64,000 nt of DNA, from IMG/VR virus record IMGVR_UViG_3300045988_132725; one strand, written 5' to 3'. Below are positions 40,862-61,284 of the stretch, in pieces. Within the stretch, counting starts at the first letter, position 1. The number at the start of each line of letters is the position of its first letter. The position numbers were made by a program, and so were the translations under genes. The DNA is from a virus. The notes under the pieces were generated by a model. That model ran no database searches, was not told the DNA's origin, and saw nothing but the letters and a program-made list of their open reading frames with translations.

Positions 40862-41227
40862 ATGGCAAGACCTATAGGATTAGGACCAGAAGTAAATACG
40901 GTCCTAATCTTTGAACCTAATTTTAACTTGATAGCCATTGTATCTAATTCGTATCAAGCGGCTAAACTAACAGGGTCATATCAACCAGCTGTACACATGG
41001 CGATAAAGGGTGGATTAAAAACTACGAATAGCTTGTATTTTAGATCGGTACCTCCCAATATGGAAGTCTATATTTCGGACTTGTATTCATTAAAATTACA
41101 AGAGTTTGACCAAATGTGTGGATTGGAGAGATCCTATGAAACCCCAGAGAGATTATTAAACAGAGCAAAGAAGTATAACAAGGAAACAACTATTAAGAAA
41201 AATGACAAACGTAAGAATCTTAAATAA
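40862..41227 (+). CDS. Small DNA-binding-like protein (NUMOD1/IENR-type helix motif)
   Basis: 121 aa. SNSYQAAKLTGSYQPAVHMAIKGGLKTTNSLYFR resembles homing-endonuclease-associated DNA-binding modules. Confidence 0.4.
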   Translation: MARPIGLGPEVNTVLIFEPNFNLIAIVSNSYQAAKLTGSYQPAVHMAIKGGLKTTNSLYFRSVPPNMEVYISDLYSLKLQEFDQMCGLERSYETPERLLNRAKKYNKETTIKKNDKRKNLK

Positions 41228-41648
41228 ATCAAATAATTCAAACCCTGCGTATGAGACACTAGGATCATCTGGAATGGATGTAAGAGCTTTTTGTGAAGAA
41301 AGTATAGTGATTGAGCCGAACCATAGGGCACTAATCAAGACAGGACTTCATGTTGGATTACCGACAGACTATGAGATCCAAGTAAGACCAAGGAGCGGTT
41401 TGGCGCTGAAGAAGGGTATAACAGTTGTCAATACTCCGGGGACAGTGGATGAATCTTATAAAGGCGAGATAGGTATAATTCTCATAAATCATGGAGATGA
41501 GCCTTTCGTGGTCAACAGTGGTGATCGCATAGCCCAGTTGGTATTGCAAAAAGTCCCTAAGATCAATTGGATTCCGGTTGATACTATAGAAGAATTGGGA
41601 GAGTCGGAAAGAGGAGAGAGTGGCTTTGGTCATACAGGTGTGCAGTAG
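41202..41648 (+). CDS. dut: dUTP diphosphatase
   Basis: 148 aa. GSSGMDVRA, RSGLALKKGITVVNTPGTVDESYKGEIGIILINHG, GDRIAQLVL and ERGESGFGHTG are the five dUTPase motifs. Confidence 0.95.
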   Translation: MTNVRILNKSNNSNPAYETLGSSGMDVRAFCEESIVIEPNHRALIKTGLHVGLPTDYEIQVRPRSGLALKKGITVVNTPGTVDESYKGEIGIILINHGDEPFVVNSGDRIAQLVLQKVPKINWIPVDTIEELGESERGESGFGHTGVQ

Positions 41649-47816: not shown

Positions 47817-48413
47817 ATGGCAAAGAAAGGTGTATTGACAACAGCGGATTATCTTCCATTTAAGGAGTATAAGGAAACAATGTCCAAACTTCATCGTGAT
47901 GGCTATTATCGTGATGAGCTTTATTTTATTCTAGCGTATACAACAGCTCTTCGTGTATCGGATTTACGCATGTTAAAATGGGAAGACGTGTTAAATAAGA
48001 CATGTTTGGTCGTTACCGAGAAGAAAACTAAGAAGACCAGACCTATACCATTCAATGATGAGTTTAGAAAAATCGTGTCTGAGCTGTATGAATTATTAGG
48101 ACATCCATACAAGGGTTGGTACATTTTTGAAGGGAACAAGCAACAACCTATGAGTATCCAACATATCAACCGTAGGCTGAAAGATATCAAGGAGAGATAT
48201 GACTTATCCATTGAGAATTTCTCTACCCATACGTTTAGGAAAACATTTGGGCGTAATTACTATGAGACGAGAGGAAAAACAGAGGAGGCCCTTATCCAGC
48301 TGCAAAAGGTATTTAATCATTCCAATGTAGGTATCACTTATGTATATATCGGCATTAGAAATGACGAGATCAACGACTTTTACAAAAACATTAAATATAG
48401 AGACGATGATTGA
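47817..48413 (+). CDS. Short tyrosine recombinase (catalytic domain only)
   Basis: 198 aa. TALRVSDLRMLKWEDV (Arg), HTFRKTFG (H-x-x-R) and NHSNVGITYVY (His, Tyr). No N-terminal core-binding domain. Confidence 0.7.
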   Translation: MAKKGVLTTADYLPFKEYKETMSKLHRDGYYRDELYFILAYTTALRVSDLRMLKWEDVLNKTCLVVTEKKTKKTRPIPFNDEFRKIVSELYELLGHPYKGWYIFEGNKQQPMSIQHINRRLKDIKERYDLSIENFSTHTFRKTFGRNYYETRGKTEEALIQLQKVFNHSNVGITYVYIGIRNDEINDFYKNIKYRDDD

Positions 48414-49008
48414 TTTAAAAAAGAACAAGGGAAACTACCTAACGTACGATGAATATAGAATTACGCTGGATAGGTTAAGGATGGATCGTATGTGCATTGA
48501 GGAGTTATTTTTCGTGCTGGCTTTCTACACGGGATTAAAACTGTCAGATCTACTTTCCCTCAAATGGAGTGATGTTTTGGACAAGGATGAATTCATATGG
48601 ATCAAAACCAATCCGTGCAAGAGGACATTTGCGTTATCGTGGAAAGGACAGGATGTGCGTTCCCGATTGTCATATTTACATGAAGAACTTGGCTCTCCGG
48701 AAAAGGATCGATATGTATTTGAGACGAAAACAGGAAGACATTGTCATAACTCGTTTATTGATGAGTTACTGAAAAGGGTAAGAGATAAATATGATTTACC
48801 GGTAAAGCCTCTATACGCAAGCAGCTTTAGATTAACCTTTTGCCATCATATATATGAGACCGAAGAAAGAAAAGTAAAGGCTATCGCCTTCTTGGATTCA
48901 TATGTTAGCGGTAAAACTGTTGACATAGCCACTAATGGAAGACATATCCCTAGCGAGGAGATAGAAGATGCTTTAAAATCAATGAATATAAAATATAGAA
49001 ATGACTAA
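48406..49008 (+). CDS. Degenerate tyrosine-recombinase-like paralog
   Basis: Start trimmed to ATG 48406 (an ATGA-type overlap with the upstream stop). TGLKLSDLLSLKWSDV has Lys in place of the catalytic Arg. SSFRLTFC has Ser in place of His. Confidence 0.55.
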   Translation: MIDLKKNKGNYLTYDEYRITLDRLRMDRMCIEELFFVLAFYTGLKLSDLLSLKWSDVLDKDEFIWIKTNPCKRTFALSWKGQDVRSRLSYLHEELGSPEKDRYVFETKTGRHCHNSFIDELLKRVRDKYDLPVKPLYASSFRLTFCHHIYETEERKVKAIAFLDSYVSGKTVDIATNGRHIPSEEIEDALKSMNIKYRND

Positions 49009-50134: not shown

Positions 50135-50170
50135 GCCCCATCTACTTGCTAGCGGATGGGGCTTTCTTGT
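50135..50170 (+). terminator. Intrinsic terminator ending the rightward operon
   Basis: Stem GCCCCATC / GATGGGGC (50135-50142 / 50155-50162), followed by TTTCTTGT. Confidence 0.75.
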
Positions 50171-50256
50171 GGATTTATGTGAAGTAAAGTCTAACTATTG
50201 CAAATGAGGCTTTTATATTAGTTCTTGAATGTATAAAAAGAAATGTTCTAGCAGAA

Positions 50257-51375
50257 TCAATCTTTTTCAGGCTTGATATGCTCTGATGGGTCAAGAGATC
50301 TTAACTTAAGTAAAAAACTAAAATGTTCTTCTAATTCTTTACTTTTTTTTGTGTCTTCTATTTTAAATTTTTCGGTTGATTCTTTAAATTTCTTTATTGA
50401 TTTTGTGATTTCTCTTCTAAAACGAAGTAATGGAACAAATAAAGGGAAAAATAGTCCGCTAAAGATAGCAAAAGATATAGACGATATTAGAGCAAAAGTT
50501 TCATTGAAAATAAGTTCTTTGTCTAATAATACATTATATAAGATGGAAAGTATCGATATTGATAATAAAATCAGTGTAAAATGAATCAAATTGAAGTAAT
50601 GAGTAAATATACTAGCTCCTTTCTTTTTAAATTTAAAAATAGCTCCTATAGCCAAGACAATAATGGCTAATACATAAACAATTGTCATAGACCATGATCC
50701 TAAAAAAGGTAATAATCCAATAACAAAAGTAGATAATATTAAAGAAAAGAGTATTTTAATACAAGTCGTAAGTTTAAATTCATATAATATATCGCCATTG
50801 GAAGGATTTCTTTCCTTTATAGAAATCCAATAATAACTCCATATATATAACCAATATATAAAAGATGTAATAGAAACTAAACTTACTGTATCAATGCACC
50901 ATTTTATAGCCCCCCAAAAACAATCAAATATAAAAATAAATATACAAAATAAAAATGAATAAAAGAAAGAAGACAAAAATTCAGGTGCTTGGGTTATATT
51001 TTTGTATAAATTATCAACATTATCCCTTAAAGTAAAATAACTTGTTTGATATTCAACAGTTAAGAACTGTAGCTCGTTTACCAAGCTAAGCATTTCTTGT
51101 TTACGTGGATTATTTTCTTCTTTTGATTTAGCAATAGCACTATAGAGAACTTTATAATTACGCTTTTTTAAAACATCTACAAAATTATCCCCTTCTCTGC
51201 TTAAAAACGCTTTAGTCCGTTTGCAAATAATTAACAATAAATTTTGTATAAAATTATTGCTGTTTTTCTCGATGTTGTCAGATCCAAAAAAACATAAAAC
51301 AGCTAAAGTCATTATTGAACCTAAAAAAGTTGCACTATTTCCACTAAGAAAAGTGCATAATAGTACTAGAAGCAT
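50257..51375 (-). CDS. Multi-pass membrane protein (about 7-8 TM), candidate effector
   Basis: 372 aa, very A+T-rich. Has hydrophobic helices (FLSSFFYSFLFCIFIFIF, IVYVLAIIVLAIGAIF and others) and a charged C-terminal tail. Confidence 0.6.
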   Translation of the reverse strand: MLLVLLCTFLSGNSATFLGSIMTLAVLCFFGSDNIEKNSNNFIQNLLLIICKRTKAFLSREGDNFVDVLKKRNYKVLYSAIAKSKEENNPRKQEMLSLVNELQFLTVEYQTSYFTLRDNVDNLYKNITQAPEFLSSFFYSFLFCIFIFIFDCFWGAIKWCIDTVSLVSITSFIYWLYIWSYYWISIKERNPSNGDILYEFKLTTCIKILFSLILSTFVIGLLPFLGSWSMTIVYVLAIIVLAIGAIFKFKKKGASIFTHYFNLIHFTLILLSISILSILYNVLLDKELIFNETFALISSISFAIFSGLFFPLFVPLLRFRREITKSIKKFKESTEKFKIEDTKKSKELEEHFSFLLKLRSLDPSEHIKPEKD

Positions 51376-51378
51376 GTC

Positions 51379-51939
51379 TCAATTAATGATTTTGTGTGAT
51401 GAAAGTAAAAGGCTTTGAAACTGTTTCTTTAATGCTTCAGTGTTTTTAGTGTCATTAAAATTTGCGAAAGCAGAATGTTCTTCTGCTCCTAATTCTCTTC
51501 TATATTTATTGTCATCACCGATTGAAAAATGAAATTCAGGTTTTAGTTCGCTGTCTAGTTTATAAACTAGAACCTGCCCTTCAGCTATTTTATCCTTTAT
51601 TAAAGGACTAATATTTGTTGCTAAGTCTTCTATAAAGCTATGTTCTTTTTTTTCTAAAATAATGGAAAGTTTTCCTCCTCTATTTAAAAAATGAGTAATT
51701 TGGTCGTATAGTGGCTGCATAGGGTTATAATCCCCTTCTGTAACTTCTTTATCTACTTTTTCAGCAAAACTAGTTCTGAAGAGAGAACCTTCACCGCAAA
51801 GCATATCGATTTCATTGGAGTGCCTAAAAATCTCTTTCATTATTATAGCATTATGTGATCTGTCAGCATTCCACATTAATTCATTTCTTTTGCTGTTTGC
51901 AATAGTCTCTATCTCGACATTATACTCTACTAGACTCAT
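51379..51939 (-). CDS. Cytosolic protein with possible PLD/Nuc-like fold lacking the motif Lys
   Basis: 186 aa. The order of blocks AIIMKEIFRHSNEIDMLCG, LNRGGKLSIILEKKE and FHFSIGDDNKYRRE..AFANFND parallels Nuc-type PLD domains (HxK..D..GS.N), but reads HFS rather than HxK. Confidence 0.3.
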   Translation of the reverse strand: MSLVEYNVEIETIANSKRNELMWNADRSHNAIIMKEIFRHSNEIDMLCGEGSLFRTSFAEKVDKEVTEGDYNPMQPLYDQITHFLNRGGKLSIILEKKEHSFIEDLATNISPLIKDKIAEGQVLVYKLDSELKPEFHFSIGDDNKYRRELGAEEHSAFANFNDTKNTEALKKQFQSLLLSSHKIIN

Positions 51940-51959
51940 TTTCTCTAAGTTTGGACGTG

Positions 51960-51967
51960 CAAATTTA
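51960..51967 (-). promoter_or_regulatory. Host-type -7 box TAAATTTG
   Basis: Plus-strand caaattta, 21 nt upstream of the ATG at 51939. An ATTGCA-N8-ATTGCA repeat lies just upstream. Confidence 0.5.
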
Positions 51968-51989
51968 AATAAATAATTTGATATTGCAA

Positions 51990-53117
51990 TCTCTACATTG
52001 CATTAAAATCAAAATACATTGGGAGTTATCTTGGTTTTTTTATGTTCTTGGGCATAATTTGTTTTTGTTAAGAATATGGCTTCGCCTTTACCCCTCCGAT
52101 AACATCCCTCAGCAACGTAGTTGAAGCTTAACTATAACTACTACCTTATATGACATATACAGTATATACTACTGTTACTATATAAGGTAATACCTATTTA
52201 CAGGATATTACAAGATTGGTTCGATATGGGTTGATACAAGCTTCTTACCTAAAACTACGGCGATAAGAGGACTTGGTTGACTAATCTAGATATCAATCAC
52301 CATATCCGAGCATTCTACGACACTTCCGCCCCTCCACCTATGTAAGCAACTTCGTTCATAAAAGGATAACCGTTCTGTTGGCCAAGTAGTAGGGAACTCT
52401 TGTATGCTACTCGTTTTAAACAGATCGGCGGCGCTTGGTCTCCTTTCCTCCATGGATAAACCAGAATAGGAACAGCGAGATTGCAAACGTCAGAGCCTTG
52501 GTTGACCTGTTTCCAATTACTAGGATACGTCCAGTTACGGATGCGAATCATAGGATTTTTATTTGTCTTCGGTCACTCGTTTACCGGCTCTCGGTTGATG
52601 TTATCGGAGTTCGGGTTGTCAGGCGTAAGACATAGCCCTAGATTATACCACCGATAAACGAGCGTTCGTAAATACTCGATCTTTTTGTTAGATTTTTGTC
52701 AATCTGGGAGAAGAGAGGCACGACATTGCAGCCTTGTCTTAAAAACTCCCGTAAGGTTTGTTTTATATTCTCCAGCATCCCTCAACGCAGGAGAAGTAGA
52801 ACGGTTATTTATTCCCGGATACTAATTTTTCTGACTCGAATCTACATCAAGTTTCTGTCTGCCAATAGCTGTATCAAAGCTGGGATAAGGAACAAGATCC
52901 TCTAACTCATCCCGGAAAGCATTAATAAATGCCGATTGAGGATATTTCCGCTATTGTATCGTCACCAAGGTATAACTATCGACCAACCGGTTAGGATTGA
53001 CCCACATGATAGACATGGAGCAATGGGATAGGGTACAAAGCGTCCAGACCTTCGGATTTGAAGGTTTTATATAAGAATAGGCTGATTTGATCAAAAAGGG
53101 TTTGTGGTTGTTTGATA
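51990..53117 (-). other. ORF-free tract B (candidate long ncRNA or decayed gene)
   Basis: About 1.1 kb with only 66-78-aa ORFs on either strand. A structural-gene box sits at 53064-53081 with no ATG after it. A 10-bp inverted repeat lies at 52142-52189. Confidence 0.4.
53064..53081 (-). promoter_or_regulatory. Structural-gene box (minus sense CCTATTCTTATATAAAAC)
   Basis: Shares a 16-mer with 9578-9593. Flanks are also similar (GAAGG on one side, AAAAGG(G)TTTG on the other). Confidence 0.4.
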
Positions 53118-53687
53118 TTAATTCGTTACGGAAACAATAATACCTACTGCTTCCATATCACTTATAGTTTGCCTAGCTTCATCTAGCGTACTTCCATGAT
53201 ATAAGTGATCTGCAATGATATTTAATTTAAAAGATATGCCTCTATGTCCATTACTTATAAAGTCAATAAGAGCTTGACCACAAGCAGGACATGGGCTTTT
53301 AGATACTCTCATAATTAACGATAAAGTTCCGCTGGCATCAGTACCTTCATCGTCAATGGAATGATCTATAAATGATTGAATGCCAGCTATTGCCTCCGTT
53401 TCTGCATGGACTCCATCTTCACTTATGCCTGTGCCTATTACAACTTCATTGCCATCATCTTCATTTATAAAGGAAACCTGAGCATAAGTAGTATATCCTG
53501 TACTTGATGATTCTTCTGTTGTGATGAGTCTATTGTAAATAAAATCGCCTTGAATACAATCTCCATTGATCCCGGAAATTAAATTATACTGTCGTGTGGC
53601 AGACTCCCTATTATCCATTTGGTATTTGGGATGATTTGTATTGTTTGGAGAAAGTCTGCTTATTGCATTTTCTTGGTATGAATACAT
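53118..53687 (-). CDS. Zinc-dependent deaminase, AID/APOBEC-like
   Basis: 189 aa. Has VHAETEAI ... SKSPCPACGQALIDFISNGHRGISFKLNIIADHLYHG. The H-A-E and P-C-x-x-C motifs are 35 residues apart. The post-PCxxC helix-strand pattern resembles APOBEC (SPCxxCA..l..FIs....l.I...r.Y). Confidence 0.7.
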   Translation of the reverse strand: MYSYQENAISRLSPNNTNHPKYQMDNRESATRQYNLISGINGDCIQGDFIYNRLITTEESSSTGYTTYAQVSFINEDDGNEVVIGTGISEDGVHAETEAIAGIQSFIDHSIDDEGTDASGTLSLIMRVSKSPCPACGQALIDFISNGHRGISFKLNIIADHLYHGSTLDEARQTISDMEAVGIIVSVTN

Positions 53688-53703
53688 TTGGTTCGTTTTA
53701 AAT

Positions 53704-53982
53704 TTATGGATTATTCTTCTCTCCTCGCCCCTCTTCTCTTCTCACCAGTTTCCCGTCACTTCCAGCCAAGAACTTCTCGCTGATGCCTTGCTTCTCTGAT
53801 TTAATGGGAATGGTAACTATGTTGGTTTGTCTTCTGGCGAATATCGGAGCTACTTGGTAAAGAATCTCTATCGCCTCATCCATTGACAGGTAATAATTAC
53901 CAGCGTATAGACCGAAGAAGTGACCTTGATCTCCTCTTGATATCTTGTGGTAATAGTTCCTCTGTAAGGCAATATTTCCCAT
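53704..53982 (-). CDS. Small protein co-transcribed with the deaminase
   Basis: 92-aa ORF 17 nt upstream of the deaminase gene. No recognisable domain. Confidence 0.45.
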   Translation of the reverse strand: MGNIALQRNYYHKISRGDQGHFFGLYAGNYYLSMDEAIEILYQVAPIFARRQTNIVTIPIKSEKQGISEKFLAGSDGKLVRREEGRGEKNNP

Positions 53983-54000
53983 CGAGCGATTAGTTTACCG

Positions 54001-54008
54001 CAAAGTTA
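54001..54008 (-). promoter_or_regulatory. Host-type -7 box TAACTTTG
   Basis: Plus-strand caaagtta, 19 nt upstream of the ATG at 53982. Confidence 0.5.
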
Positions 54009-54098
54009 ATGAAAGTGTCTTAGAAAGCAAGGAAATGGGCTATATTTTGATTTTTTCTTCAAAAATATTGATGATTATCAAATATACTTTCGAAAAAA

Positions 54099-54129
54099 TT
54101 TGTCATGATGGTTTTAATTCATAATTTCG
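54099..54129 (+). promoter_or_regulatory. Host-type promoter (TTTG-N19-TAATTTCG)
   Basis: TTTG at 54099-54102 and TAATTTCG at 54122-54129, upstream of the lipoprotein ATG at 54148. Confidence 0.5.
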
Positions 54130-54147
54130 CACGAAAAAATTGTTAAC

Positions 54148-55110
54148 ATGAAGCGATTGTTGTTTTTGCCCTTGTTGGTATTATGTTTATCTGGATGTAT
54201 GATGGAAGAGTTGGACAAGGAGTCTCCAGTTCAAGAAGCGAAAGAATATCTCGTGCCTATAAAGATGGCGGGGGAGATATTGGAGATAGAGGAAGGGCCA
54301 TTGACGAAAGCTGGAGAGAACAATGATTTGTATGGGTTTCAGATAAATAGTAAGAAGGCTGGAGAGACATCTTATTCTCCTTATGCCTATGGTTTGTTTG
54401 ATGATATAAGTGACGTGAAGGTTAAGTTGATTAGTGGTGCTGAGTATGAGTTTGTTTGTACTATGGTGAGGGATGGGAAGAGTAAGATTTGGGGAATTAA
54501 TCATGCCGGCCAAGGCACACCTTTTAAAATGAACTTAAATAACTATAATGAATTTATATATGATACAAAAGACTCTTATGAGAATGATTTTAAAAGGGGA
54601 CTCACTGAGGTTGGTATGGAGTTATATTATGTTATTCCCAATACAGATCGTTACTATGGAACCATAGATAAAATTGATCCATTATCTGCTTCTTCTTTAT
54701 CAATAAATATGAAAAGAGTTGTCTTTGGGTTGAAATGTATTGCTGATGGGCTTACGGAAGGGGAGCTTAAAATACGTGTAATGAAATATACATCTGACGA
54801 TTCTCCTTATTTATCTATTAAGACTCGTGGCGATCAATCCGTTGAAGAAATATATACTTTTGATTCTTTTTACTTGGACGATAACGGAGACCTATCTCGT
54901 GCATACACTTTAGAAGTTACCCATATACACGTAGATAATACACAAGAGATAATAGTAAATGAGTATATGACTTTTAAACGCAATAAGAAAACCATTGTTA
55001 CAATTAAGATCAAGAAGAGTAATGGTGATACGGGTACTAAAGGAGTAGATGTTGTGTTAGACGATACCCCAATGACTGATGGAGATAAAGTGGTAATAGA
55101 CGGCAAGTAA
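54148..55110 (+). CDS. Lipoprotein
   Basis: 320 aa. Signal peptide MKRLLFLPLLVLCLSGC with lipobox LSGC. The mature part is predicted beta-rich. Confidence 0.75.
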   Translation: MKRLLFLPLLVLCLSGCMMEELDKESPVQEAKEYLVPIKMAGEILEIEEGPLTKAGENNDLYGFQINSKKAGETSYSPYAYGLFDDISDVKVKLISGAEYEFVCTMVRDGKSKIWGINHAGQGTPFKMNLNNYNEFIYDTKDSYENDFKRGLTEVGMELYYVIPNTDRYYGTIDKIDPLSASSLSINMKRVVFGLKCIADGLTEGELKIRVMKYTSDDSPYLSIKTRGDQSVEEIYTFDSFYLDDNGDLSRAYTLEVTHIHVDNTQEIIVNEYMTFKRNKKTIVTIKIKKSNGDTGTKGVDVVLDDTPMTDGDKVVIDGK

Positions 55111-55135
55111 TAAACCAAACATAGCTTTAAAATAG

Positions 55136-55170
55136 GGCGAACATCGTTAAATCTGGTGTTCGCCTTTTTT
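55136..55170 (+). terminator. Intrinsic terminator after the lipoprotein gene
   Basis: Stem GGCGAACA / TGTTCGCC (55136-55143 / 55157-55164), followed by TTTTTT. Confidence 0.75.
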
Positions 55171-55315
55171 GTATTAAATGGCTAGAATAAGGAGCAAATT
55201 GGCACTGGGATAGAGAATTTAGGGAAAACGGGGCTTGAGGATTTGGTTCCCGGAAAATTTTTGGAAACAGATATATGCATTTTTATATATAGGAAAGAAG
55301 ATTGTTGGGATGGAT

Positions 55316-55345
55316 GGCAGATGGTTAAGAGGCAGTTGGTTAAGG
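55316..55345. repeat. Tandem 15-mers GGCAGATGGTTAAGA / GGCAGTTGGTTAAGG (iteron-like)
   Basis: Read directly. 13 of 15 positions are identical and the copies are adjacent, embedded in a purine-rich ORF-free tract (55200-55560). Confidence 0.7.
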
Positions 55346-55834
55346 GTGGAAATACTGGATGGGAAAATGAGAGAATTTACATATAGGCAAAGGTGTGCTT
55401 CCAGTGTATAAAAACTGTTTTTGATTTCTGGAAGGACAACCTAGGTTAGGGGAGGTGTTTGGAAGGGTAAAAACGGGACTTGAAAATAGGGACCGGCAAC
55501 ATGTATGGTATCCGCAACGCAAAGGTAACCCTCCCTCTTCTTTTTTGCCTTTTTCGTCCTGTTTGATCATTAATTAATGATTTATTTATGAATATAATAT
55601 CTGATTATCAGTATGTTATGTAAATAAGTTCACTAATATAGAAAGTGAACTTTTTGATAAAGGTGTATTAGTTGACTAGTACACTAGTAAGGTGTATAAT
55701 GTCATGTTTGTATAAAATATGACATTATGTCATGTTATTTTGTCATGTGATGATTCGCTTTAGTAAGTTGCTTACTAAAAGTAACTATTGTCTTATTTGC
55801 ATTAGTTCTTTTGCCTATATAATGTACGTGTATA

Positions 55835-56182
55835 TTATTCTTTATTGTCCTGTATCGCTTTCCTAATAGCTTCAGCGAATTTAGGATGTAAATGTATTTC
55901 GTTTTCCTCTATGATAACTAAATTATCACTTAAACTAGTATGCTTTGTATTATCTGTCTGATTATCAATATTATCAGGGGTAAACACTTGTTCGCCTAAT
56001 AGTTCATTAAATGTGCTTTTTGTATATTCTCTTAAACTACATAACTGTTTGATTGATAGTGTATTTATGTCTCTATCTAGTATGGTGGATATTGTACTTT
56101 TATTAATCCCTAATACATTTGATAAATCTATATTAGTAATATCGTACTTAAATCGTATGTCTCGTATAGTGTTCATATCCAA
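55835..56182 (-). CDS. XRE-family helix-turn-helix regulator
   Basis: 115 aa. ITNIDLSNVLGINKSTISTILDRDINTLSIKQLCSL matches the HTH_XRE pattern. Confidence 0.65.
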   Translation of the reverse strand: MDMNTIRDIRFKYDITNIDLSNVLGINKSTISTILDRDINTLSIKQLCSLREYTKSTFNELLGEQVFTPDNIDNQTDNTKHTSLSDNLVIIEENEIHLHPKFAEAIRKAIQDNKE

Positions 56183-58153: not shown

Positions 58154-58302
58154 TATAATTGTAGACGTACCTTGAGAAATATGTAAGGGTGTAATGTATC
58201 CGTGTGGATAATTACGCCCTTATTATATCTATCTTGTAAAAGCATCCGCAATTATGTGGGTGCTTTTGTGTATATTATGTATATTTGCGAAAAATAAAGA
58301 AT

Positions 58303-58620
58303 ATGGCAACGATAGTATTGGAGAAAAAACGAAAGAACATAGATTTACCAGTGGAAACATTGAAAAAGTTGTCTATCATGGCAGCATCACAGGGTAAAAG
58401 TTTAAAAGCGTTTATAGAAAATATTTTGATAGCAAAAGCCGATACTCTGGACGTGCAAGTTTCATTGAATCCCAGTCCAAGTAACGACCCGTGGTTTGAC
58501 AACCCGAAAAACGTGGCTGCTGTAACACGAGGTATTGAGGATTTAAAACAGAAAAAAGTTGTATCTATGAATCTCGGTGAATCTTTGGATGATTTTCTTA
58601 ATCGTGTAGAGCATGTATAA
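58303..58620 (+). CDS. Antitoxin (YefM-like C-terminus) of the YoeB module
   Basis: Start at ATG 58303, because the -7 box TATATTTG at 58280-58287 overlaps the longer TTG-start ORF. The C-terminal NPKNVAAVTRGIEDLKQKK resembles YefM. Overlaps the toxin gene by 8 nt. Confidence 0.6.
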   Translation: MATIVLEKKRKNIDLPVETLKKLSIMAASQGKSLKAFIENILIAKADTLDVQVSLNPSPSNDPWFDNPKNVAAVTRGIEDLKQKKVVSMNLGESLDDFLNRVEHV

Positions 58621-58885
58621 AATAGAATTTACTAAAGAAGCTATTAAAGATGCTTCAAGATTACGGAAGTCGGATATGCAATCTTATAAGAAGCTTGATA
58701 AGTTAATAAATGAACTGAAAGAACACCCTACCACAGGCACGGGGCAAGTGGAGCAATTGAAAGGGAGTCTTTCGGGATATTGGAGCAGACGAATAAACAA
58801 TCAACACCGAATAATCTATTCCATACATGAAGAAATTGTAACGGTGGAGGTTGTATCGGTTGGAGGTCATTACGGAGATAAATAA
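58613..58885 (+). CDS. yoeB: YoeB/Txe-family toxin (mRNA interferase)
   Basis: 90 aa. GQVEQLKGSLSGYWSRRINNQHRIIYSI...GGHY parallels E. coli YoeB ([26 protein letters not shown]...YHY). Confidence 0.85.
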   Translation: MYKIEFTKEAIKDASRLRKSDMQSYKKLDKLINELKEHPTTGTGQVEQLKGSLSGYWSRRINNQHRIIYSIHEEIVTVEVVSVGGHYGDK

Positions 58886-60456: not shown

Positions 60457-60699
60457 ATGTTTACGGAAGTTGTACAAGCTAATTACGTGGATGGATACCG
60501 TATAGCGGTGTTGTTCAATGACGGGGTCAAGAAAATCGTGGATTTCACGAACCTGTTAAAAAGGAATATGCCGGTATTTAAGCCTCTGGAGAACATAGAC
60601 CTGTTTAAGAAATTCACAGTAACAGATACTTTAGAGTGGGATAACGGAAACATTGATATAGCTCCAGAGTATTTGTATGAGAATGGGGTTAAGGTATAA
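60457..60699 (+). CDS. DUF2442 family protein
   Basis: 80 aa. YRIAVLFNDGVKKIVDF ... LEWDNGNIDIAPEYLYENG is the DUF2442 pattern. This family is the usual partner of DUF4160. Confidence 0.8.
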   Translation: MFTEVVQANYVDGYRIAVLFNDGVKKIVDFTNLLKRNMPVFKPLENIDLFKKFTVTDTLEWDNGNIDIAPEYLYENGVKV

Positions 60700-61005: not shown

Positions 61006-61284
61006 ATGTTTGCGATAGCTTTTGATATGGTCATTTCAGACCTTAAACAAAATTACGGGGATCCGTATAATAATGCTTATTTTGATATTAGTAACATAAT
61101 GGAGAAGTATGGATTTTATAGGGCACAAGGGAGCTTGTATCTAACAGAGAATAGAGACATGGCAAACCTGTTCCGTGCTATTGAGGCTTTGAAGAAAACG
61201 GAGTGGTTCAGAAAATCAGTACGTGACATAAGAACATTTAGGGTAGAGGATTGGTCAAACTTCACGGATTTTATGAAAGAATAA
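61006..61284 (+). CDS. vapD: VapD (Cas2-superfamily endoribonuclease)
   Basis: 92 aa. MFAIAFDM...YGDPYNNAYFDISNIMEKYGFYRAQGSLYL...WFRKSVRDIRTFRVEDWSNFTDF matches the VapD family pattern. Confidence 0.8.
   Translation: MFAIAFDMVISDLKQNYGDPYNNAYFDISNIMEKYGFYRAQGSLYLTENRDMANLFRAIEALKKTEWFRKSVRDIRTFRVEDWSNFTDFMKE

Follow-up and report, generated by a model that had tools for sequence, protein, structure and literature searches.

What is a protein resembling the AID/APOBEC deaminases of vertebrates doing in a bacteriophage of the human gut? The question is raised by a gene for a 189-aa protein at 53118..53687, on the minus strand of the 64,000-nt IMG/VR record IMGVR_UViG_3300045988_132725, the whole of which is called the window here. 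The window belongs to a temperate myovirus of Parabacteroides, which is also found integrated in chromosomes and whose host, P. distasonis, is a human gut bacterium. The proteins encoded in it include sheath, tape-measure and portal proteins, Ant, tyrosine recombinases, an NAD-dependent ligase, a C5 methylase and a dUTPase. An earlier reading made from the letters alone (the sequence-only reading) had described the gene as a phage-borne deaminase of the AID/APOBEC type, and the sheath, tape-measure, portal, Ant and integrase proteins bear out the first part of that description. As to the second, gene integrity, motif conservation, purifying selection and fold class show an intact, selected gene for an APOBEC-like zinc deaminase.

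The key residues of the predicted zinc-dependent enzyme are H94/E96, C133/C136 and Y163. They lie in the motifs H94-A95-E96 and S129-K-S-P-C133-P-A-C136, and the spacer from E96 to P132 is exactly 35 residues, so that the HAE...PCPAC signature with its 35-residue spacer was read correctly from the open reading frame (ORF) list. When the protein was searched against Pfam, the top nine matches were all AID/APOBEC families. The clade was tested through PF18771, PF08210, PF18750 and PF18778 (Iyer 2011), and four families scored above their curated cutoffs: APOBEC3 (29.6 bits, cutoff 27), SNAD4 (29.5, cutoff 27), NAD1 (28.1, cutoff 27) and APOBEC_N (27.3, cutoff 25), with E-values from 8e-7 to 4e-6. 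APOBEC2 fell slightly below (26.7, cutoff 26.8). The dCMP-deaminase profiles, in contrast, remained well under threshold, with 15.5 bits for dCMP_cyt_deam_1 (PF00383; cutoff 25) and 12.3 bits for TIGR01354 of NCBIfam (cutoff 113.65), and no bacterial toxin-deaminase family appeared in the Pfam search at E<1. NCBIfam, PHROGs and PADLOC gave no significant match, and in databases the protein is automatically annotated with PF18771. A phmmer search of PDB sequences returned APOBEC3H, the best match, and APOBEC3G only. These alignments span SPCxxC, the 'DFI' helix that follows it and the ...LY motif of beta-4/loop 7. In the strand-4/helix-4 segment, DHLYHGST, Y163 is aligned with the Tyr of APOBEC3H ...RLYY, the loop being only about 6 residues long, and strand 5 ends in Val/Ile, not Met.

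The fold points in the same direction. An AlphaFold model built from the four available sequences has a mean predicted local distance difference test (pLDDT) score of 66.7, the core reaching 70-89, and its elements follow the order alpha-1, beta-1, beta-2, alpha-2 (HAE), beta-3, alpha-3 (PCxxC), beta-4, alpha-4, beta-5. The predicted beta-4 (residues 151-161), helix (168-180) and beta-5 (184-187), with pLDDT 73-89, correspond to the helix-4 division topology, and the whole would be a minimal five-strand core with helix 4. The N-terminal region of about 60 aa that had been taken as unique is in part an alpha-1 helix (residues 29-42) placed before beta-1 in the model. In a Foldseek comparison with the PDB, the 50 best matches listed were AID/APOBEC structures throughout (A3G, A3C, A3H, AID, APOBEC1, A3B, A3F and APOBEC2), with E-values from 2.4e-7 to 8e-6 and template-modelling (TM) scores of about 0.4-0.5. 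Among the predicted viral structures of BFVD the best matches were of the dCMP-deaminase or TadA-like type at E 2e-4 or weaker, about 1000-fold weaker than the AID/APOBEC matches. Hence the resemblance to APOBECs rather than to dCMP deaminases goes beyond chance in profile and in predicted fold, as the sequence-only reading had supposed.

Several observations weigh against so close an assignment. The margins over the Pfam cutoffs are 1-3 bits, and the model that gave TM scores of about 0.4-0.5 was based on four sequences and averages a pLDDT of 66.7. The chain stops at residue 189, two residues past beta-5, so that alpha-5 and alpha-6 are predicted to be missing; the distant homolog P0006, described below, likewise ends without the C-terminal helices. 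All alleles and P0006 read S-K-S-P-C and lack the Trp that precedes PCxxC in SWSPC, a feature of vertebrate and Wolbachia versions; this Trp and the two C-terminal helices help to define the classical AID/APOBEC proteins (Iyer 2011, PMC3239186). The motif, the profile score, the topology and the nearest fold are those of the clade, while the C-terminal helices with their D-aromatic motif and the Trp are lacking, and the protein is therefore a divergent member of the AID/APOBEC-like clade. The model and the profiles are best explained by a zinc-dependent cytosine deaminase of the helix-4 division that is catalytically competent and nearest to AID/APOBEC.

The family is confined and strain-variable. 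The exact 189-aa protein, WP_157355042.1 of P. distasonis, is present on >1000 contigs of up to 1.25 Mb, and the deaminase is encoded in P. distasonis chromosomes, but no family member was found among the 185,579 species representatives of GTDB. Among about 15 billion proteins the family consists of P. distasonis prophage alleles and one homolog with 40-42% identity. The latter, P0006, was also the one true distant homolog, besides close alleles, in an exhaustive phmmer search of 1.84 billion cluster representatives. P0008 and P0009 were rejected as members, being repeat artefacts, and a profile search for further members added none. A single partial copy was found in IMG/VR, and tblastn against 50,697 phage records recovered no family member, the best match being a dCMP deaminase motif. 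These results, with the weak dCMP/TadA-like matches in BFVD, agree with the claim that such enzymes are uncommon in phages. No paper mentioning WP_157355042, A0A173V8P3 or CUN22515 was found in the literature, nor any paper on an APOBEC-type anti-phage deaminase.

HAE...PCxxC is invariant across all alleles and P0006, in which STGYTTYAQV and DHxYHG are also kept, and the ratio of non-synonymous to synonymous substitution (dN/dS) is 0.42-0.48 in all pairwise comparisons of the deaminase. Variation among the P. distasonis alleles sits in the beta-1/beta-2, alpha-2/beta-3 (a 6-residue indel) and alpha-3/beta-4 loops, and the loops flanking the active site are invariant among them. By analogy with established APOBEC structures, the variable loops would face away from the substrate groove.

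The location of the gene provides the second line of evidence. Cassette boundaries were drawn by comparison with 20 related loci (L numbers). Homology with the sister prophages breaks off at 53729-53767 (in L025 at 53903) and picks up again at 53079/53080, leaving a cargo segment of about 0.65-0.7 kb in between. This swappable segment, slot 1 (53080..53767), comprises the tail of a 92-aa ORF, a 16-nt spacer, the deaminase gene and 38 nt downstream. The 92-aa leader ORF (53704..53982, minus strand) is by the ORF list and the sister-locus comparison a backbone gene of the left flank, and its 3' tail forms the left recombination boundary of the slot. At least four interchangeable cargos, the deaminase included, occupy slot 1. 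The alternatives are a 540-aa ORF on the other strand (L006, L008-L010, L019, L020, L022-L024), a 381-aa ORF (L007) and two lipoprotein-like ORFs of 133 and 331 aa (L025:2328-3727), the latter following a 92-aa ORF that is itself mostly replaced. Of the seven loci anchored on the conserved spacer called tract B, five had the 540-aa cargo in slot 1, one the deaminase and one the lipoprotein pair.

A second variable slot spans about 50160-52071. Its cargo in the window (50257..51939, minus strand), recognized by its replacement in sister loci, consists of a 186-aa protein (51379-51939) and a 372-aa multi-pass membrane protein (50257-51375). In L007 the slot is filled by PD-T4-9 A/C (L007:8824-9972; PADLOC 1.4e-13 and 2.5e-26), a defence system of the toxin-antitoxin-chaperone type that includes a SecB-like chaperone and is flanked by two copies of one terminator hairpin; in L008 it holds three unknown ORFs. 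In L023 a 113-aa ORF is followed by a 495-aa SAMHD1-like HD dNTPase (L023:1263-2750, minus as stored), for which phmmer against the PDB gave SAMHD1 and bacterial dNTP triphosphohydrolases at E 4e-20 and 2e-12. Two families of human restriction factors, APOBEC and SAMHD1, thus have homologs in this one hotspot, in different strains. Each slot has four alleles between flanks that are 82-99% identical. No match in Pfam, PADLOC or NCBIfam was obtained for the 381-aa, 540-aa and 410+105+165 aa cargos, and none in the PDB for the 381-aa and 540-aa proteins. With unrelated cargos between conserved flanks and recognized defence genes in slot 2, the region has the layout of a prophage accessory or defence hotspot.

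The two slots are separated by tract B (52072..53079), which sister-locus comparison shows to be an ORF-poor spacer, 95-99.5% identical in all related loci whichever cargos flank it and with a G+C content of 0.42-0.46 against 0.25-0.37 around it. The ORF-free tract that the sequence-only reading had noted downstream of the deaminase and included in the cassette is thus real (51940-53117 is ORF-poor), but tract B belongs to the backbone, outside the cassette. It gave no match in Rfam, tRNA, Pfam (small ORFs) or phage-record blastn searches, and neither Rfam, at gathering and at E-value thresholds, nor tRNA/tmRNA searches revealed an RNA in the cassette or its vicinity when applied to the window and to 51800-55900. 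As a structured RNA or a decayed gene it was considered and set aside on unremarkable minimum-free-energy z-scores and the lack of a Pfam match in its small ORFs; overall, it could represent a recombination anchor between the slots, a long 3' untranslated region or a decayed gene. The sole local folding signal (z about -2.7) is an imperfect palindrome at 52134-52197 (ATAACTACTACCTTATAT ... ATATAAGGTAATACCTAT), near the slot-2 end of the tract, which is also kept in L007 and L008 and could serve as an operator or in recombination. A search for integron-like or att-like repeats at the slot boundaries yielded only this palindrome and the duplicated terminator hairpin of L007.

What the enzyme does can be proposed from its class and its place. 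In the reading preferred here, to which we give slightly less than an even chance, the deaminase is a moron or defence cargo, a polynucleotide cytosine deaminase acting against competing phages; its substrate, its expression and its antiphage effect are inferred from the classification and the context. It would be transcribed from a host-type promoter behind the conserved 92-aa leader ORF, to which it is fused in many strains, and would be expressed in the lysogen. It would then convert C to U in exposed single-stranded DNA (ssDNA), possibly RNA, of a superinfecting phage, whereupon uracil excision by the host would fragment or mutate the invader, as in APOBEC3 restriction. Mutagenic exclusion of competing phages, one of the roles suggested from the sequence, appears to be the best functional guess and now has the hotspot context behind it. 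The more specific proposition, in which a single prophage gene restricts superinfecting phages by DNA uracilation and so constitutes a prokaryotic functional counterpart of APOBEC3 restriction, must be considered doubtful.

Four points count against this function. The PADLOC-DB 2.0 models match neither the deaminase nor the 92-aa, 186-aa and 372-aa ORFs. The other cargos of slot 1 are uncharacterized, and hence no proven defence gene lies within the slot that the deaminase occupies. A defence review of January 2026 lists nucleotide-level and ATP deaminases as the defence deaminases and leaves APOBEC unmentioned. Finally, a constitutive ssDNA deaminase without an inhibitor should raise the mutation rate of the host. 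In E. coli, however, expression of AID/APOBECs causes mutations rather than death, and a stand-alone deaminase without an inhibitor is therefore conceivable.

The most serious competitor of a polynucleotide deaminase is an enzyme of the nucleotide level, using dCMP, dCTP or cytidine, which would either feed phage thymidylate synthesis together with dUTPase or deplete the dCTP of an invader in the manner of DCD/AvcD. Deaminases of dCMP are common in phages, the closest structural matches in BFVD and the best tblastn match among phage genomes are of this kind, the established deaminase-based defences work on nucleotides, and in L023 the adjacent slot holds a SAMHD1-like dNTPase. A dUTPase, which would matter to any mechanism based on uracil, is indeed encoded in the window (41202-41648, plus strand; Pfam E 5e-25), but it belongs to a different module, 11.5 kb from the deaminase, which resides in the accessory hotspot. 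Moreover, both dCMP-deaminase profiles scored below their cutoffs, none of the 50 best PDB fold matches listed was a dCMP deaminase or a cytidine deaminase (CDA), no PADLOC dCTP-deaminase/AvcD model was matched, and the protein lacks a kinase-like N-domain. We regard a nucleotide-level activity as unlikely.

Somewhat less probable again is that the enzyme serves the phage itself as a mutator or editor, hypermutating phage or host DNA for diversification or for SOS/induction control, or editing tRNA or mRNA. RNA editors and programmed mutators do exist within the AID/APOBEC family. The idea gains interest from the surroundings of P0006 in L004, where the gene lies tail-to-tail with an operon for a SRAP/YedK-type abasic-site protein, a Y-family (UmuC-like) polymerase and an S24 (UmuD/LexA-like) peptidase (L004:6948-9367; also L005:946-3365). 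Such activities process uracil-derived lesions, and HMCES/SRAP is known as a buffer against APOBEC3A damage in human cells (PMC8041192). However, the association with SRAP and Umu genes is a single observation that could reflect coincidental cargo, such cassettes being common, and no SRAP/Umu genes turned up in those ORFs of the window that were searched or in the Pfam calls precomputed for the sister loci; neither is a diversity-generating target evident. In the same unrelated phage, P0006 is adjoined by a homolog of the 186-aa protein of slot 2 (24% identity, BLASTP E 9e-11), which matches DUF7931 (2e-5) and PLDc_2 (3e-4) in Pfam, both below cutoff, and is followed by a 280-aa hydrophobic protein without detectable similarity to the 372-aa protein; the two-gene module lies at L004:4113-5508. 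A functional link between the deaminase and the 186-aa and 372-aa pair was considered and rejected, the pair being present without the deaminase in L006, L009, L010, L020 and L022. The pair is itself a candidate uncharacterized defence pair.

The leader ORF bears on a further proposal, that of a toxin with its neutralizer. The sequence-only reading had seen a small co-oriented ORF upstream of the deaminase and had considered the two as a toxin/immunity or toxin/antitoxin pair. The ORF is present, although the gap from its stop to the ATG of the deaminase is 16 nt (53688-53703) and not 17. The adjacency and common orientation would suit a 92-aa immunity protein or antitoxin, as in DddA/DddI and SsdA/SsdI; adjacent immunity genes are usual for bacterial toxin deaminases (Iyer 2011, PMC3239186), and an RNA from tract B might act in the manner of AvcD/AvcI, where the antitoxin of AvcID is an RNA. 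The comparative data largely refute the proposal. Homologs of the 92-aa ORF were found in sister prophages only (P0013 and P0014, 68% identity; L008-L010, 65-66%), and there they precede unrelated cargos, namely the 540-aa ORF (L006, L008-L010 and five metagenome loci) and the 381-aa ORF (L007). The ORF is absent upstream of P0006, an HNH remnant standing in its place, and is internally deleted in L013. It is weakly constrained (dN/dS 0.44-0.91), has no match in Pfam, PHROG or PADLOC, and is fused to the deaminase in common alleles. Tract B, for its part, is kept at 95-99% identity where the deaminase is lacking, with neither an RNA-family match nor a structure signal, and no secretion or trafficking domain was detected in the deaminase with Pfam. 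The comparison of loci thus gives no support to the 92-aa ORF as a dedicated immunity protein or antitoxin, and the toxin pair is highly improbable.

The fusion results from a 5-nt indel in a purine-rich tract (53720-53760, minus strand), which distinguishes separate ORFs of 92 and 189 aa from one fused ORF of 295 aa. Alleles of the tract were compared at L011, L012 and L015-L018, and the split and the fused states are both common in P. distasonis. In-frame fusions are represented by P0003, P0030 and P0031; the fused P0030 occurs on 530 contigs, and P0031 (KDS39233.1, MCC2780218.1) on 54, among them the 5.24-Mb chromosome CP143949.1. In UniRef the fused form bears the name 'Activation-induced cytidine deaminase AID domain-containing protein'. 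An AlphaFold model of the natural fusion P0003 has a mean pLDDT of 44, the N-terminal part 24-43, which is too poor to judge any docking of the 92-aa part on the deaminase. The Met-Tyr start of the deaminase is kept in the stand-alone P0006, and therefore the stand-alone form looks ancestral and the fusion secondary. That the window allele is a frameshifted, non-functional remnant of the 295-aa fused gene, as the 5-nt indel and the truncated or deleted variants (e.g. P0004, without C133) might suggest, is hardly credible, given that Met-Tyr start in a stand-alone homolog of 40-42% identity, the exact 189-aa sequence on >1000 contigs and a dN/dS <0.5 between split and fused alleles.

Expression from a host-type promoter was suggested by a Bacteroidetes-type -7 box (TAnnTTTG), TAACTTTG, at 54001..54008 (minus strand), 19 nt upstream of the ATG of the 92-aa ORF. 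The box is present and is retained in sister loci L013 and L015. It is weak evidence by itself, since the window contains 86 copies of TAnnTTTG where 66 +/- 8 are expected, and it is therefore plausible by position only. A second -7-type box, TAAATTTG, lies at 51960..51967 (minus strand), 20 nt upstream of the 186-aa ORF, and slot 2 probably has, on this sequence match, a separate promoter of its own. A scan for sigma-70-type promoters and terminators gave nothing above shuffled expectation.

Further features of the phage lie around the hotspot. A 320-aa lipoprotein gene (54148-55110, plus strand) diverges from the 92-aa ORF and is 81-97% identical, and partly replaced, between loci; considered with the lipoprotein-like cargo of L025, it raises the prospect that surface or superinfection-exclusion functions may share the hotspot. 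At 47817-49008 (plus strand), overlapping ORFs of 198 and 222 aa both match tyrosine recombinases (Phage_integrase), the second being 200 aa in sister loci; they may represent one integrase in two pieces or a pair of small recombinases. Host-type genes follow directly after the 200-aa half in L003 (14680-15369), and the attachment site may therefore be there. The accessory arm in which the deaminase lies also has an integrase, and beyond the hotspot it carries a repressor-like helix-turn-helix protein and ParE/YoeB-type and DUF2442/DUF4160 modules, small elements of a kind usual in accessory regions. On the plus strand this part includes a ParE/YoeB-type toxin with an upstream small ORF (58285-58885), a DUF2442 protein (60457-60699) and another 92-aa ORF with a weak Cas2-like match (61006-61284), assigned from precomputed Pfam calls in L001. 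In L002, a related backbone with the same deaminase cassette, the large terminase (L002:14798-17899) is interrupted by an intein (Terminase_3 with Intein_splicing/Hint).

If the enzyme deaminates polynucleotides, it would be a bacterial-virus case of APOBEC-style restriction, a mechanism absent from the January 2026 review, and would add a data point for the proposal that AID/APOBEC arose in bacteria or phages (Iyer 2011; Krishnan 2018), the eukaryotic AID/APOBEC-like deaminases (AADs) having been derived from bacterial toxin systems (Krishnan et al. 2018, PMC5889660). With 189 aa and without alpha-5 and alpha-6 it would also be an unusually compact base-editing candidate, a naturally minimal APOBEC-like scaffold. 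The exact protein is carried on >1000 public genome and metagenome contigs and in P. distasonis chromosomes. The evolution of gut strains could therefore be influenced by a mutagenic prophage gene. The hotspot itself, with two slots and at least eight cargo sets, mostly without an annotated function, offers a compact source of candidate defence genes for the Bacteroidales, in which few defence systems have been tested so far.

Comparison with known systems places the deaminase among several types of enzyme. With the phage dCMP deaminases of the T4 Cd type it shares a phage origin, the zinc site with HAE and PCxxC and the helix-4 topology, but it falls below their Pfam and NCBIfam cutoffs, its fold matches to that type are about 1000-fold weaker than those to APOBECs, and it lies in an accessory hotspot instead of a nucleotide-metabolism module. 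The anti-phage systems built on the dCTP deaminase DCD, AvcID, RADAR RdrB and Cad1 likewise employ an antiviral deaminase effector on mobile elements or in defence islands. They act, however, on free nucleotides or ATP and possess an extra kinase-like domain, a small-RNA antitoxin, an ATPase or a CARF domain, whereas the phage deaminase has no PADLOC match. The polymorphic-toxin deaminases (DddA/SCP1.201, SsdA, MafB19, YwqJ) are, like it, fast-evolving and sporadic effectors of inter-genomic conflict with a deaminase fold; unlike them, it shows no Pfam toxin match, no N-terminal trafficking domain and no dedicated immunity gene, and DddA-type enzymes have a C-terminal hairpin topology in place of the helix-4 one.

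Nearer in kind are the AID/APOBEC-like deaminases that Iyer et al. 2011 (PMC3239186) described from bacteria and prophages, B3gp45 of Wolbachia phage WO and PSEBR_m1207 of Pseudomonas brassicacearum. These, too, are prokaryotic proteins of the extended AID/APOBEC-like clade that are borne on mobile elements, B3gp45 being prophage-encoded as well. No direct sequence relationship to them was recovered in the exhaustive phmmer search, in which P0006 was the sole true distant homolog. The Trp before CxxC is retained in B3gp45, and the helix-5 'Da' motif in the extended clade as a whole; the phage deaminase has neither, and the host of B3gp45 is an endosymbiont, whereas that of the present enzyme is a gut Bacteroidales bacterium. 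From the vertebrate AID/APOBECs (APOBEC3H, APOBEC3G, AID, APOBEC1) the protein is separated by 13-20% identity in the fold alignments, by Lys for the SWSPC Trp, by a spacer between HAE and PC of 35 residues against about 23-28, by about 65 residues before beta-1, by the lack of alpha-5 and alpha-6 and by being encoded in a bacteriophage. Nevertheless they provide its best profile and fold matches, and it has in common with them the HAE...SPCxxC zinc site, the 'DFI' helix, the beta-4 ...LY motif with its loop, helix 4 and a parallel beta-5, a single domain of similar size and, as proposed here, an antiviral logic.

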